From an uncultured Eubacteriales bacterium (lineage in GTDB: Bacteria; Bacillota; Clostridia; Christensenellales; UBA1242), in the NCBI GenBank assembly GCA_948514155.1, contig CAOQYA010000002.1, forward strand, positions 24,002 to 88,001: a stretch of DNA of 64,000 bases. The letters are read 5' to 3'. The notes under the pieces are model-generated. The model was not told the origin of the DNA. It made no database searches and saw only the letters and a list, made by a program, of their open reading frames with translations. Positions 2,105-27,849 of this stretch are shown piece by piece; the stretch's first letter is position 1; every line of letters starts with the position of its first letter. A program made the position numbers and the translations under genes.

Positions 2105-2416
2105 CCTCTTTTGCTTAGAATTTCAGCTTCGCAGAGAGTCGTGGCAAAATGCTTTAGCATTTTTGTTTGGCCGCGAAAAGGGAAATTTCAAGCGTAAAGG
2201 CGCAGATTTTTGAGTCTACTCAAAAACAAGCAAAAGCGCAGAAATTTCCTGTGGTCGGAGTGGCGGGATTTGCTCCGCTGTGAAGTTTGCGCGAAGAGGC
2301 TTGTGCGGCTATCACGCCGGGGCGGGAAAAACTTGCGCACAGGCAACTTTTTCTGCCGCCCGTTCAAATCCACGTTTTCACTTTTATAATTTTCAACTTT
2401 TGCTTAGAATTTCCCA
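2105..2416. repeat. GC-rich structured intergenic element(s) with nested direct repeats, including a 21-nt copy of the tRNA-Pro 3' end
   Basis: TGGTCGGAGTGGCGGGATTTG at 2252-2272 equals 2417-2437. CTTTTGCTTAGAATTTC at 2108-2124 equals 2397-2413. Hairpins at 2139-2176, 2181-2249 and 2207-2226. Homologous to 19863-19990 in inverted orientation. Confidence 0.7.
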
Positions 2417-2492
2417 TGGTCGGAGTGGCGGGATTTGAACCCACGGCCTCTTGGTCCCGAACCAAGCGCGCTACCAACTGCGCTACACCCCG
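2417..2492 (-). tRNA. tRNA-Pro (anticodon CGG), CCA encoded
   Basis: The reverse complement reads CGGGGTGTAGCGCAGTTGGTAGCGCGCTTGGTTCGGGACCAAGAGGCCGTGGGTTCAAATCCCGCCACTCCGACCA. The cloverleaf arms pair and the anticodon loop is TTCGGGA. Confidence 0.9.
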
Positions 2493-13723: not shown

Positions 13724-13825
13724 GCAAAAAGTATAGCATATCGTTTGACAAAAAGAAAAGAAATGTGCTAGAATTTTTATAGTTTTAAAAAGCAATGACG
13801 AAAGAACATGGCCGAGTGTTTGCAA

Positions 13826-14026
13826 ATTCAGAGAGGTTTAGGTTGGTGCGATAAACTGTTGCAATTTCGGTGAATTCACTTTCCGAGCTGTCCGGCTGAA
13901 AATTTAAGTAGGCTGGGTCGGGTGCGACCGTGATATCGCAACTTGAGGGCGCAACAAAAAGCGCTGAAATTAGGTGGTAACGTGAAAGAGAACTCTTTCG
14001 CCCTAATGTGGCGGGGGAGTTTTTTT
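13826..14026 (+). promoter_or_regulatory. T-box leader (tRNA-Phe-responsive) with terminator/antiterminator, upstream of pheS
   Basis: T-box sequence AAATTAGGTGGTAACGTG (13967-13984). Terminator CTCTTTCGCC-ctaatgt-GGCGGGGGAG plus a T-run (13993-14026). UUC triplets are present in the upstream stem region. Confidence 0.8.
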
Positions 14027-19796: not shown

Positions 19797-19810
19797 TCTT
19801 TAATTGTTAA

Positions 19811-19835
19811 GCCGCAAATTCTTGCGGCTTTTTTT
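19811..19835 (+). terminator. Rho-independent terminator of the pheST-nifS-thiI unit
   Basis: GCCGCAA-attc-TTGCGGC followed by T7. Confidence 0.8.
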
Positions 19836-19990
19836 GCGCCAAAAATTTTTTTTGGCGCGCTGGGCGAACATGAACTTGTTGCTTGTTTTCGAAGGGGCTC
19901 GAAAAGCTGCGCGCGGGCAGTTCATGTTCGCCTACTCGCGGCCAAACGAAAATCGCCACGCGATTTTGCCGCGGCTCTCGTGCGAAGAGG
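19836..19990 (+). repeat. GC-rich hairpin-dense intergenic element (type 1)
   Basis: Hairpins at 19836-19858. A 13-bp inverted repeat at 19863-19875/19920-19932 encloses 19886-19905. A further hairpin spans 19937-19973. Block-wise homologous to 2131-2250 on the opposite strand. Confidence 0.7.
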
Positions 19991-20119
19991 GGCGATGTTT
20001 TTAATATCAAAATTTTTGGCACATTCTCTTTATTTTGGGTTGGGTGAGTGCTATCATTAAATCTGCGCCGAAATTAGGCTTATGCATACTCGTTTATATT
20101 TATAAAAACGAAATTTATA

Positions 20120-20251
20120 ATTTTGCATAAACCTAAATTGTTATAAAAATTCGGTGAATAAATATTCAAAAAACACTTGCATAAATATAAATTATGTTGT
20201 ATAATAATCGAAACTCGACTTATAAATATAAATTTATAAATATTCAAAAAC
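20120..20251 (+). promoter_or_regulatory. argR control region: sigma-A-type promoter with ARG-box-like operators
   Basis: Perfect ARG-box core TGAATAAATATTCA (20155-20168). TTGCAT (20177-20182), 17 nt, then TATAAT (20200-20205). Partial boxes occur around 20175-20194 and 20231-20251. Confidence 0.6.
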
Positions 20252-20299
20252 GCTACATCCCTTTATTTTAAAGGAGAATAGCCGCTGAGGAGGAAGAGC

Positions 20300-20752
20300 A
20301 TGGCACGCAGTGCAAGACAATCGAAAATCTTGGAACTTATCTCCACAAAGGAGATTGAAACGCAGGACGAACTTGCTAGAGAACTTCGCAATGCAAATTT
20401 CGAGATAACTCAAGCCACTATTTCAAGAGACATCAAAGAACTTGGCCTGACCAAGATTTTAACTTCTTCGGGCAAATATAAGTATGCGATTGTTGGCTCG
20501 GACGAGCAGCAGATTTCGAATAAATACATAACAATCTTCCGCGAGGCAGTGATTTCTGTTAAGGCGGTGCTTAACATTGCGGTTGTTAAAACACTTAAGA
20601 GCATGGCCGGCGGCGTTTGCGGCTTTATCGATAAACTAAATCTCACAAACCTTGTTGGCGTTGTTAATGGTGACGACACGGTGATGTTAATCTTCCCAAC
20701 AGCCGGCTCTGCTTCAGATGCTGTGCAAGCACTTAGCGAAATGCTGAGTTAA
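20300..20752 (+). CDS. argR: Arginine repressor ArgR/AhrC
   Basis: RQSKILELI...TQATISRDIKELGL winged-helix and a C-terminal oligomerisation domain. Synteny with recN. Confidence 0.9.
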   Translation: MARSARQSKILELISTKEIETQDELARELRNANFEITQATISRDIKELGLTKILTSSGKYKYAIVGSDEQQISNKYITIFREAVISVKAVLNIAVVKTLKSMAGGVCGFIDKLNLTNLVGVVNGDDTVMLIFPTAGSASDAVQALSEMLS

Positions 20753-24346: not shown

Positions 24347-25375
24347 TTAGTTTATTTTAATTTTTGTTGCCACATCCTTTCGCATATCTTCGCTGATTGC
24401 TGCATAATGCTTCTTTGTGGTGTTGACGTCGCGGTGACCAAGAACGTCGGCAACGATGTAAATGTCCTTTGTTTCACGATACAAGTTAGTGCCAAATGTG
24501 CTGCGCAGTTTGTGCGGAGAAATTTTTTTGAGGGGAGTTGCTTCTCTGGCAAATTTCTTAACAAGATTTTCAACTGCTCGAGTTGATATGCGTTTCTTTT
24601 GAAGGCTGACAAACATGGCATGCTCAATTTCGTCAAGACCAAGTGTTGCCCGCTTTTTAAGCCAGATTTTAAGCGCATCGGCAACTTCTTCGGAAAAATA
24701 TAGCACTGTTTGATTTCCGCCTTTTCGCGTGACTTTAAAGGCATTTTGTGAAAAGTCGAAATCTTCGATATTCAGGCCGATACACTCGGAAATACGAATG
24801 CCGGTGCCAAGAAAAAGGGTGACAAGGGCGTTGTCGCGTTCTTTTGTGTTTTCATTGTAAGCTTTTTGGCGCTTCGAAAATGTGTTATTCGCAGAAACGG
24901 CGTCAATCATTCTGGAAACTTCGTCGGGCTCAAGGCGAATAATCTCTTTGTTGTGCAGTTTTGGAGTCTGAACTTTGCTCGCCACATTTGAAGAGATAAG
25001 GTCGTGATTGAAAAGATATTTGAAAAGGCTGCGCACAGCTGCGAGCTTTCTTGCTTTGCCGCGTTCGCCATTTTTAATGATTTTCCCTTCCATTTCATAG
25101 TAGGAAAGGTGGGAAAGAAATTGTTCAATTATGTTCGATTTTAGACCGCTAAGGTCATTAAGCGAGATTTCGCTCTTTTTTTTGTGTAAGTTTTCCGCTA
25201 AAAAGTCAAAAAAGATATTAAGGTCCATTGCGTAGTTGAGCCTTGTAAGCGAAGAGGAGTTGTTTTCAATGCCGATAAAGAAGTCATAGCAAAAATCCGG
25301 CAGTTCTGCGGTGCGCTGCCTTATCTTCCTCTGATTTGTTAAATCTCTTTTTTCAAAGTAGGAAAGCGTTTTCAT
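24347..25375 (-). CDS. Tyrosine site-specific recombinase (Xer/phage-integrase family)
   Basis: Catalytic region LRSTFGTNLY...ADVLGHRDVNTTKKHY (R..H-x-x-R..Y) and an N-terminal SAM-like core-binding domain. Start is either ATG 25375 (leaderless relative to the candidate promoter) or ATG 25393. Confidence 0.85.
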   Translation of the reverse strand: MKTLSYFEKRDLTNQRKIRQRTAELPDFCYDFFIGIENNSSSLTRLNYAMDLNIFFDFLAENLHKKKSEISLNDLSGLKSNIIEQFLSHLSYYEMEGKIIKNGERGKARKLAAVRSLFKYLFNHDLISSNVASKVQTPKLHNKEIIRLEPDEVSRMIDAVSANNTFSKRQKAYNENTKERDNALVTLFLGTGIRISECIGLNIEDFDFSQNAFKVTRKGGNQTVLYFSEEVADALKIWLKKRATLGLDEIEHAMFVSLQKKRISTRAVENLVKKFAREATPLKKISPHKLRSTFGTNLYRETKDIYIVADVLGHRDVNTTKKHYAAISEDMRKDVATKIKIN

Positions 25376-25381
25376 GCTCTT

Positions 25382-25410
25382 ATTATACAACATCCACTAG
25401 TTTTTGTAAA
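25382..25410 (-). promoter_or_regulatory. Candidate sigma-A promoter of the recombinase gene (leaderless arrangement)
   Basis: On the minus strand: TTTACA (25410-25405), 17 nt, TATAAT (25387-25382), 6 nt, then ATG 25375. Confidence 0.5.
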
Positions 25411-26886: not shown

Positions 26887-27849
26887 ATGAAAGGAATTTC
26901 AAAGAAACTTATCGAAGCAATCGCCAAAAGTGAAAATGAACAGTTCGCTGAAGAGACCGAAAAAAAGGTTGCTGCGCTTGTTTCGCTTGCTGTTGAAGAC
27001 CTTTCAAAAACGGTGCCATTTATCAGCGTGCAGAATTGTTTGTTGCAGCCTGTGAACGAAACTTTTAACGGCGCAATAACTCCTGACAGTGAATTTATCT
27101 ATTTTCTTGGCTTTGAAAGCCCTCAAATTGAACTTAACTGCGTTCAATACAACGACGGCTGGAAGAAGTTTAAAGAAAGGCTTATCTACGCTTGGAACGC
27201 CTCAAAACGCAAAAAGAAAAAGAAAAGAAGGAAAAAAGGCGAGCCTCAAGAACTTGCCGTGACTGCATATGAATATCAGGATGCGGGAAAATACAATCTG
27301 GGCGCACTCAAGGAAGATTTGCAAAAAGCGTTTGTTAAAAATTTAACTACAACAAGCATTGTTTACAATCAAGAGCGCTATCTTCGAGTTATCGGTCGAG
27401 ACGAATTCGGCTCGAAGACGCAGATTTACATTTATCCATGCATTATGGACGGCAACGATTTCAAATTTTTCATAAGCCGCAAAAAAGGCTTTTACACAAT
27501 AAACTTTGAAAATCGAGTGAAGTTCCTAAATGAAAAAATGGAGAAAGTGGGTGAGAATTTCCTTTCAATGATTAAAATCTTAAACACCATGTTCAGAAAC
27601 ACGCGCAACAGTTCAATTCCAAATCAGATTTTTATTGAAAGTTTGTTATATAACACTCCGGACGAATTGTTTGAAGGCAGCGACATTTACGAGGTGTTTA
27701 TAAAAATCGTGAATTTCCTTAACATGACTGATGTCAGCCAGTTTAAAAGTATTTTGAATGCAGACATGAAGATATCAGAGGATAAGGCAACAAAATCAAA
27801 TCAAATTGCATTCGTTAAATTCTTAGGTTCTTTGAATGAAATAAATTAG
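26887..27849 (+). CDS. Hypothetical protein with an internal poly-Lys/Arg tract
   Basis: 320 aa with tract SKRKKKKKRRKKGE. The C-terminal IFIESLLYNTPDELF segment is reminiscent of nucleotidyltransferase-fold helper domains, but no clear GS/DxD motif is present. Confidence 0.45.
   Translation: MKGISKKLIEAIAKSENEQFAEETEKKVAALVSLAVEDLSKTVPFISVQNCLLQPVNETFNGAITPDSEFIYFLGFESPQIELNCVQYNDGWKKFKERLIYAWNASKRKKKKKRRKKGEPQELAVTAYEYQDAGKYNLGALKEDLQKAFVKNLTTTSIVYNQERYLRVIGRDEFGSKTQIYIYPCIMDGNDFKFFISRKKGFYTINFENRVKFLNEKMEKVGENFLSMIKILNTMFRNTRNSSIPNQIFIESLLYNTPDELFEGSDIYEVFIKIVNFLNMTDVSQFKSILNADMKISEDKATKSNQIAFVKFLGSLNEIN

Follow-up and report, generated by a model that had tools for sequence, protein, structure and literature searches.

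What kind of element is the GC-rich, hairpin-dense block that follows the terminator of thiI, and what has kept it folded? The block lies in a 64,000-nt stretch of DNA (the window) from an uncultured Eubacteriales bacterium (contig CAOQYA010000002.1), where two copies were recognized: e1 at window 19855-19982 on the plus strand and e2 at 2131-2257 on the minus strand. An earlier note, made from the letters of the window alone, had described four hairpin-forming parts at 19836-19990 and a homologous locus at 2131-2250 whose helices differ in sequence. When the sequence was read, all hairpins claimed for the first locus were found in place (Table 1), as were the helices GGAAATTTC/GAAATTTCC, TTTTTGAG/CTCAAAAA and AAAATGC/GCATTTT at the second. 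The block is best read as a member of a new structured repeat family, REP/BIME- or BOX-like in kind and belonging to no named family.

The homology of the two loci was borne out by blastn, which aligned 19879-19987 (plus strand) with 2233-2127 (minus strand) at 71.6% identity over 109 nt (E = 1.1e-8). In the pairwise alignment of e1 and e2 the unpaired words are kept (TTGCTTGTTTT, CTGCGC, TCGCGGCCAAAC.AAAAT, ATTTTGCC and TGCGAAG) and the intervening helices differ in sequence. Folded as RNA, e1 reaches a minimum free energy of -91.3 kcal/mol, compared with -69.5 +/- 4.7 for dinucleotide shuffles (z = -4.7); the fold of e2 is weaker against its shuffles (z = -2.3). Covariance model R1 scored e1 at 98.4 bits (E = 1e-20) and e2 at 105.5 bits. 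The antisense strands of the two copies scored at most 10 bits, against 98-105 bits for the sense strands. No third copy was found by a covariance search of the window with filters off, the rest of which scored at most 13 bits.

How widespread is the element? Related loci were collected from public genomes and metagenomes and carry L-numbers (L002, L009 and so on to L114). The pattern TCGCGGCCAAACNAAAAT, with 17 specified bases, was scanned in one genome per species and returned 78 loci, a total near the roughly 70 matches expected by chance (our own estimate for 17 bases, 596 Gb and both strands), and most of these loci were scattered singletons. Fifteen matches at 14 loci fell in five uncultured Clostridia/Firmicutes metagenome-assembled genomes (MAGs), with seven of the loci in one of them (BRZ_CQ bin56). 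A more specific pattern for the third helix (P3) picked out 23 metagenome contigs, 14 of which hold family members. The covariance model was built from 24 copies and a strong copy was defined by E below 1e-10. The earlier note had made its proposal depend on further copies, and 33 strong copies were collected in all, 31 of them beyond e1 and e2. Their hosts are uncultured Clostridia/Firmicutes MAGs or metagenome contigs, and the family is found in a clade of uncultured, spore-forming gut Clostridia. The P3 pattern had no match in viral contigs, and a consensus-like copy (L081 2934-3069) had none in plasmid and phage collections (blastn), so a phage or plasmid origin is unsupported. Rfam 15, run at the gathering threshold on the window and 14 related loci, returned tRNA and T-box only. 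At permissive thresholds, with e1, e2 and the L081 array as queries, no Rfam match exceeded 28 bits and none fell on the element itself, in agreement with the claim that no Rfam family is involved. The earlier note had also asked whether a known REP or MITE might account for the block. No named family fits; in kind, the element is nevertheless a multi-copy, gain/loss-polymorphic repeat of the REP/BIME/BOX sort rather than an RNA gene present once.

The unit is ~125-135 nt long and holds three helices. P1 (7-14 bp) is internal, closing only the first two-thirds of the unit, and is hypervariable: at least nine unrelated sequences were seen, with the complement matched each time (examples are GGGCGAACATGAAC, GGGCGAATTGCAAC, AGAAAATTTC, GCAAAAAAAC, GTGGCGAAAAC, GGGCAAAAAC and ACAAAAATTA). 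Inside P1 lie GCTTGTTTT, the hairpin P2 and GCTGCGC. P2 is usually TTTTCGnn/nnCGAAAA and also occurs as CAAATTGC/GCAATTTG or GCTTGC/GCAAGC. In P3, TCGCGGC/GCCGCGA encloses CAAACG, which is invariant and unpaired, and an inner AAAATCGC/GCGATTTT hairpin whose loop is free. A longer variant module was seen at L074 4278-4680, with a TCGCGGCCAGACG start and a GCC..CTGCCATCCGAAGC end as in P3; there a ~150-nt insert replaces the inner hairpin, and the module is duplicated in tandem at 93% identity. A coding explanation was considered and rejected: the 66- and 71-amino-acid open reading frames across e1 are not conserved, because indels between copies break the frame, their lengths not being multiples of three.

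The three helices are under selection on one strand, and compensatory substitutions maintain the fold. In the alignment of 33 copies, standard pairs fill 95.9% of 922 cells, compared with 78.2 +/- 0.8% when partners are shuffled and 34-54% when they are displaced by 1-3 columns. The earlier note had argued from two loci that the helices survive by compensatory change. Pair counts on the enlarged alignment uphold this, with 24 of 29 pairs altered on both sides and such pairs present in every helix; a structure-blind MAFFT alignment combined with RNAalifold gave double changes at 17 of 29 pairs. Among the non-Watson-Crick cells, G-U outnumbers A-C by 23 to 7, which favours folding of the sense strand. 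Between the window and its close relative L105 there are four differences in or at the edge of e1, none at a paired base: one in the linker before P1, two in the P2 loop and one in the P1-P3 junction. Selection on a folded single strand, be it RNA or single-stranded DNA (ssDNA), is thus supported as first proposed, and compensatory change alone cannot tell RNA from ssDNA folding.

The family is a multi-copy, gain/loss-polymorphic and modular interspersed repeat. Copies at unrelated loci in bin56 are 93-96% identical. A bin56 copy after a tRNA-Arg gene and a bin21 copy after a protein gene, at non-orthologous sites, are 97.7% identical, and the orthologous genes of these two MAGs are only 84-87% identical. 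Tandem duplication and recombination between units clearly occur: arrays of four units follow tRNA-Gly in L091 and of two units tRNA-Arg in L062, and partial units are found too. In L081, L079 and L068 the final P3 has been remodelled to GCGCG followed by seven T, a canonical terminator. In the window, neither P3 was called by the terminator scan, and a weak terminator-like site with a 5-bp stem and then GCGATGTTTT lies at 19975-19991, within the tail of e1. In bin56 the unit is one tile among mosaics of several other repeat modules, and in another lineage REP-like GTCATTCTGAG..CGAAGAATC repeats flank copies in L087, L090, L094 and L103. Contigs break off inside copies in L002, L114, L030, L101 and L092, as expected of repeats that break assemblies.

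Gain and loss can be followed at the thiI-argR spacer, whose synteny is kept in relatives with ThiI 97, 92, 89, 79 and 78% identical. The element is present in the window, in L105 (ThiI 97%) and in L114 (89%; the contig ends 20 nt into P1), and cleanly absent from L107 (92%), L108 (79%) and L110 (78%). The thiI terminator is kept in relatives with and without the element, and the insertion lies just 3' of it. The window reads terminator-GCGC-CAAAAATTTTTTTTGGCGC-GCT-element-tail-CAAAATTTTTGGCAC-ATTCTC, and the empty site of L107 reads terminator-ATG-CAAAATTTTTGGCAC-ATTGTC. L114 reads terminator-ATTT-CAAAAATTTGGCAC-TTC-element, with CAAAAATTTGGCAC directly before the element in the same place as CAAAAATTTTTTTTGGCGC. 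Comparison of these three sites indicates that a 15-nt flank word brackets the e1 insert, and that the first hairpin of the earlier note is the left copy of this word reshaped to a perfect palindrome. The duplication rests on the three-way comparison because the two window copies, aligned with 9 exact bases, score no better than 110 of 2000 random pairs. The four-part description of the block is therefore to be amended: three helices belong to the element, and the first hairpin, which has no counterpart in 31 other copies, is flanking sequence. In relatives the flank word is an imperfect palindrome (ATTTCAAAAATTTGGCAC, ATGCAAAATTTTTGGCAC; L114 1863-1882), and at window 19836-19858 and in L105 the palindrome is perfect over 10 bp, as though template switching at the quasi-palindrome had corrected it. 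In L108 (4880-5090) the spacer is filled by another short repeat, REP-like in type and present in either orientation (GTCATTCTGAGgnnnnnGCGAAGAATCTC with its variants), which makes the thiI-argR spacer a hot spot for unrelated repeats; repeats of the GTCATTCTGAGgnnnnnGCGAAGAATCTC type also flank copies of the present family in L087, L090, L094 and L103.

The tail of the inserted block was found in the window and in L105 and is missing at the empty site of L107. It holds CTC(T)C(G)TGCGAAG, common to e2, and GGGGCGATGTT, which is similar to the beginning of P1 and looks like a following unit cut short. For e2 a filled and an empty site exist within the window itself: CCA-TGG-GAAATTCTAAGCAAAAG after the intact tRNA-Pro gene, and CCA-CA-e2-GAAATTCTAAGCAAAAG after its duplicated end. 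The flanking repeat of e2 is ~9 nt (GGAAATT(T)CT). Most other copies have no flanking repeat of 9 nt or longer, and those found are mostly array periodicity or neighbouring REP-like modules, so a fixed target duplication cannot be claimed. The word GAAATTCTAAG also lies 3' of family copies in L030 and, diverged, in L091. Loci orthologous to e2 were sought through the adjacent gene for a 178-amino-acid protein and were uninformative; its homologues (64-69% identical) lie among accessory genes, in unrelated contexts that lack tRNA-Pro.

Where do the copies sit? They lie 3' of transcription units, after the CCA end of a tRNA, a stop codon or a terminator. Seven begin 0-3 nt after the CCA of an intact tRNA (Arg-acg three times, Leu-tag, Gly-ccc, Pro-cgg and Gln-ttg). 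Two further copies bring the tRNA-end total to nine, one after a tRNA cut by the contig end and e2 after a tRNA-Pro fragment. In other subtype B copies the start is 11-15 nt past a stop codon, and ...ACC(T/C)A still stands before it. The 5' flank is CCA, CCTA or CCCA in all subtype B copies, CTC in subtype A copies of the bin56 type and GCT in e1. The duplicated tRNA-Pro end stands 2 nt before e2 P1 in the sense direction, which places e2 at the CCA-flush position usual for the family. A flush copy whose tail resembles that of e2 follows tRNA-Pro(cgg) in L091, which suggests that e2 too may have been flush with tRNA-Pro before a 144-nt insert (insert X, 2273-2416) came in. No homologue of insert X was found in the fetched loci. 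A pseudo-tRNA before e2 was rejected: outside the 21 nt that repeat the 3' end exactly, the sequence aligns with a score equal to that of the average shuffle. Several tRNA genes of the clade have their own 3' end directly duplicated 130-165 nt downstream (window 2252-2492, L009 5536-5804, L073 4975-5230, L092 4080-4336 and L097 68-300). The inserts between tRNA and duplicate each carry an inverted T-arm-like word (GGATTTGAAC, GGATTCGAACC or GTCGAACC) and look like miniature inserts flanked by attachment (att) sites.

Orientation is nearly locked. The earlier note held that both window copies follow local transcription, and e1 and e2 are each aligned with their own neighbouring genes. Across the family, the element runs in the direction of the adjacent tRNA or gene at 24 of 26 sites; about 19 of the sites are independent, several being orthologous. 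L094, which has a duplicate in L102, and L090 10298-10433 depart from this. Transcriptional and replicational orientation are confounded, because by GC skew the two coincide at nearly all loci. Only e2 and L064 follow their genes against the skew, and L094 and L090 10298-10433 oppose both. Near window position 30300 gene orientation and GC skew flip, from plus-strand genes and positive skew on the left to minus-strand genes and negative skew on the right, the pattern of a replication terminus or other convergence point. The two window copies, ~18 kb apart on opposite strands, both lie left of this flip, and each follows its local genes; their opposite orientation on one side of the flip weakly favours transcription as the deciding direction.

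What might the copies do at such places? We put a probability of about 0.55 on the reading that they are transcribed as tRNA trailers, read-through RNA or intercistronic RNA and act there as 3' structures, with only sense insertions persisting. The three helices would then form an RNA 3' structure that blocks 3' exonucleases, marks a site of processing or terminates transcription in part; in several arrays the final unit is itself a canonical terminator. Insertions at these sites would be tolerated or favoured in the sense orientation only, the same logic of persistence that has been proposed for REP/BIME and BOX (PMC3049150). Several observations weigh against this proposal. No promoter-like site was found by scanning upstream of e1 on its own strand, and e1 stands behind the strong thiI terminator, so that it can be reached by read-through only. 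The sense strand is the G-rich (leading) strand in 21 of 23 loci. The alignment used for the pair counts was fitted to the covariance model, the excess of G-U comes partly from related copies rather than independent events, and quasi-palindrome correction in DNA can likewise yield matched stem changes. What is new to both Rfam and the literature searched is this particular family, together with the clade that hosts it, its almost complete lock on orientation and its placement flush with tRNA ends; the kind of element is well known.

REP/BIME of Enterobacteria and Pseudomonas are likewise GC-rich hairpin repeats in intergenic positions 3' of genes. They form mosaics with other modules, as in the composite islands of bin56, show compensatory stem changes between copies, and have been proposed to act as mRNA 3' stabilisers or attenuators that are mobilised in trans. 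The present family differs from them in its ~130-nt unit with three helices (REP is a palindrome of 20-40 nt), in its nearly single orientation, in its flush placement at tRNA CCA ends and in its Clostridia host. There is no 5' GTAG, the 5' flanks being CCA or CTC (by eye in the alignments), and no RAYT gene and no recurrent gene was seen adjoining copies in the 8-kb pieces of host MAGs, where flanking proteins were not scanned against Pfam. BOX (boxA-boxB-boxC) of Streptococcus pneumoniae, together with RUP and SPRITE, offers a second likeness: small interspersed Firmicute repeats that are modular and tandem-expandable, pair extensively once transcribed and are believed to influence the genes transcribed with them (PMC3049150). 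The pneumococcal repeats have a strand bias of only ~60% and are enriched between convergent genes (PMC3049150). The present family is set apart from BOX by its co-orientation and its tRNA link, and no terminal inverted repeats like those of BOX, which resemble ISSpn2, were found in it. The likeness is one of architecture only, and searches of Rfam and of the plasmid and phage collections turned up no similar sequence. Miniature inverted-repeat transposable elements (Correia/NEMIS, ERIC and bcr1) share the small size, strong secondary structure, intergenic position and insertion polymorphism between strains. In contrast to theirs, the ends of the inserted block (GCTGGGCGAAC... and ...GATGTTTTTAATAT) are not inverted repeats, and the flanking direct repeats are long and unequal (~9 nt at e2, ~15 nt at e1), unlike a short target-site duplication of fixed length. 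The internal helices also covary, an upkeep that a transposase acting on double-stranded DNA does not need.

Could the fold instead be kept by a DNA enzyme? A non-autonomous element mobilised as ssDNA, of the REP/RAYT or the IS200/IS605 palindrome-associated type, would present its hairpins and bulge as substrates to an HUH/Y1 transposase, would owe its orientation bias to transposition on the lagging-strand template, and would affect RNA only incidentally. Structure kept while stem sequence is free, with one invariant unpaired CAAACG, is as for structure-specific DNA enzymes, and the bias toward the G-rich strand, the constant 5' word (CCA/CCTA/CCCA in subtype B, CTC in bin56-type A) resembling a short fixed target, and the gain/loss polymorphism with recent bursts all speak for it. 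IS200/IS605-derived elements share hairpins with conserved unpaired bases, a strand bias and a constant 5' word (CCA in subtype B). Yet no transposase gene (no TnpA among them) was seen to adjoin any copy, nor was any longer element with the same ends, though a genome-wide transposase search was not made; the left and right ends carry no matched pair of subterminal hairpins, and the REP signature of 5' GTAG and one palindrome is absent. The 15-nt word apparently duplicated round e1 is not what IS200/IS605 insertion leaves, and e1 and e2 point opposite ways on the same side of the flip, each with its local transcription and not with one replication direction. On balance this explanation seems unlikely, though it is the main rival. 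More improbable is an origin of the family in tRNA 3' trailers with spread through an RNA intermediate, like a bacterial SINE, or a small RNA, processed and linked to tRNA, whose dedicated protein partner reads the invariant CAAACG bulge of P3. Loose fits to it are the CCA at the start of units, the unequal flanking duplications, insertion after T runs, sense-strand folding with G-U pairs and between-species conservation above that of coding genes; in L045, L057 and L098, copies away from tRNA genes have longer tRNA-like 5' extensions (GCGGAGACAACCTA).

The abutment of copies on tRNA 3' ends also raises the thought of an integrative system that targets tRNA genes, with the element as its recombination site or arm, either an integrase att arm or a folded site like integron attC. 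The neighbourhood of e2, with its att-like 21-nt tRNA-Pro duplication starting in the T-loop and similar duplications in related genomes, lends some colour to it. So does the resemblance to attC (for example the Vibrio cholerae repeats) in a fold kept with free sequence and a conserved unpaired word, strand-specific folding, extrahelical bases, arrays and one orientation. The window duplication, however, brackets the unrelated insert X and not e2, and the signature of a tRNA-targeted integrative element, a repeat of the tRNA 3' end on the far side, holds for insert X and not for the flush copies, which have no second tRNA end beyond them. At least five tRNA species carry the element, protein genes and terminators precede copies too, and arrays of up to four units have no genes or cassette open reading frames between them. 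The R''/R' consensus of attC (RYYYAAC/GTTRRRY at the stem base), likewise sought by eye in the alignments, is not present. An AAC at the close of one arm and a GTT at the opening of the other are common in P1, but they lie where the helix ends inwardly, and the bases ahead of the AAC are not RYYY; subtype B is without them. Three helices stand here in place of one bulged stem, and copies adjoin tRNA genes and terminators. Integrons are rare in Clostridia. A recombination site is accordingly quite improbable. A stand-alone small RNA gene, or a riboswitch-like leader of the downstream gene, is very improbable, though it might be thought of from the strongly conserved fold and from copies that lie 33-75 nt before the next start codon (e2, L009): e1 has no promoter-like site of its own, the downstream genes are unrelated (argR, the 178-amino-acid protein and others), close relatives dispense with the copy, and tandem arrays at high copy number misfit one regulator per gene. 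A chance GC-rich patch with fortuitous hairpins, which the modest z of e2 taken by itself might suggest, is refuted by the e1-e2 homology, the 33 copies and the covarying pairs, and hardly any credence is left to it. The preferred reading remains that of transcribed 3' structures.

Table 1. Features of the two copies and their flanks (window coordinates)
Feature	Position	Strand	Sequence or basis
e1, subtype A	19855-19982	+	covariance model R1, fold, covariation
e1 P1	19862-19875 with 19920-19933	+	
e1 long inverted repeat	19863-19875/19920-19932	+	GGCGAACATGAAC/GTTCATGTTCGCC
e1 P2	19886-19892 with 19899-19905	+	
e1 enclosed hairpin	19886-19905	+	TTTTCGA/TCGAAAA
e1 P3	19936-19942 with 19968-19974	+	encloses AAAATCGC/GCGATTTT at 19949-19967
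e1 third hairpin	19937-19973	+	CGCGGC..AAAATCGC-cac-GCGATTTT..GCCGCG
e1 conserved unpaired CAAACG	19943-19948	+	
3' tail of inserted block	19975-20007	+	CTCTCGTGCGAAGAG GGGGCGATGTT TTTAATAT; pairwise alignment, relatives
First hairpin of the earlier note	19836-19858	+	GCGCCAAAAA/TTTTTGGCGC
Left copy of duplicated flank	19840-19858	+	CAAAAATTTTTTTTGGCGC; with GCGC 19836-19839 makes the first hairpin
Right copy of duplicated flank	20008-20022	+	CAAAATTTTTGGCAC; identical to lone copy in L107 empty site
thiI intrinsic terminator	19809-19835	+	9-bp stem (19809-19830) and T run; terminator scan
e2, subtype B	2131-2257	-	covariance model, sequence read, fold
e2 P1	2249-2241 with 2189-2181	-	
e2 P2	2226-2219 with 2214-2207	-	
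e2 P3	2176-2170 with 2145-2139	-	encloses AAAATGC/GCATTTT
e2 tail	runs to 2125	-	CTCTCTGCGAAGCT
Duplicate of tRNA-Pro 3' end, 21 nt (T-loop to CCA)	2252-2272	-	exact repeat of 2419-2439
tRNA-Pro(cgg), intact	2417-2492		
17-nt word after e2	2108-2124	-	sense GAAATTCTAAGCAAAAG; recurs at 2397-2413 directly after intact tRNA-Pro

The window matches a contig of the MAG GCA_949103525.1 without difference. The genes around the two copies include the sporulation genes spoVA and yunB, pheST behind a T-box, an iscS-like gene, thiI, argR and recN. The e1 copy has the thiI terminator on one side and the conserved promoter region of argR on the other. On the minus strand, e2 precedes the start codon of the 178-amino-acid gene by 33 nt. 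The region upstream of argR (20060-20300) is almost invariant, even in comparison with relatives whose ThiI is 78% identical, and its repeated words of the TGCATAAA/TGAATAAATATTCA type resemble ARG boxes, which suggests autoregulation. The T-box leader upstream of pheS/pheT (13786-14008) scored 107 bits. A phage-integrase-family gene (24347-25393, minus strand) lies just upstream of serS, and a gene with a weak match to the CD-NTase C-terminal domain (26887-27849, plus strand) lies just 3' of it, followed by a PadR-domain protein; the serS neighbourhood may be a small island.

REP, BOX, Correia and other small structured repeats leave their mark on how operons are expressed, how genomes are rearranged and how well they assemble. 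Almost all characterised families come from cultured Proteobacteria, streptococci and neisseriae, whereas the present one belongs to uncultured gut Clostridia. Its covariance model lets annotators of MAGs mask a repeat that breaks contigs and spawns spurious open reading frames. Are such repeats selected as RNA? The clean covariation, the orientation lock and the starts at CCA ends make this family a tractable case for asking. Should the tRNA link reflect processing or mobility, tRNA transcription units would be seeding mobile RNA structures by a new route.

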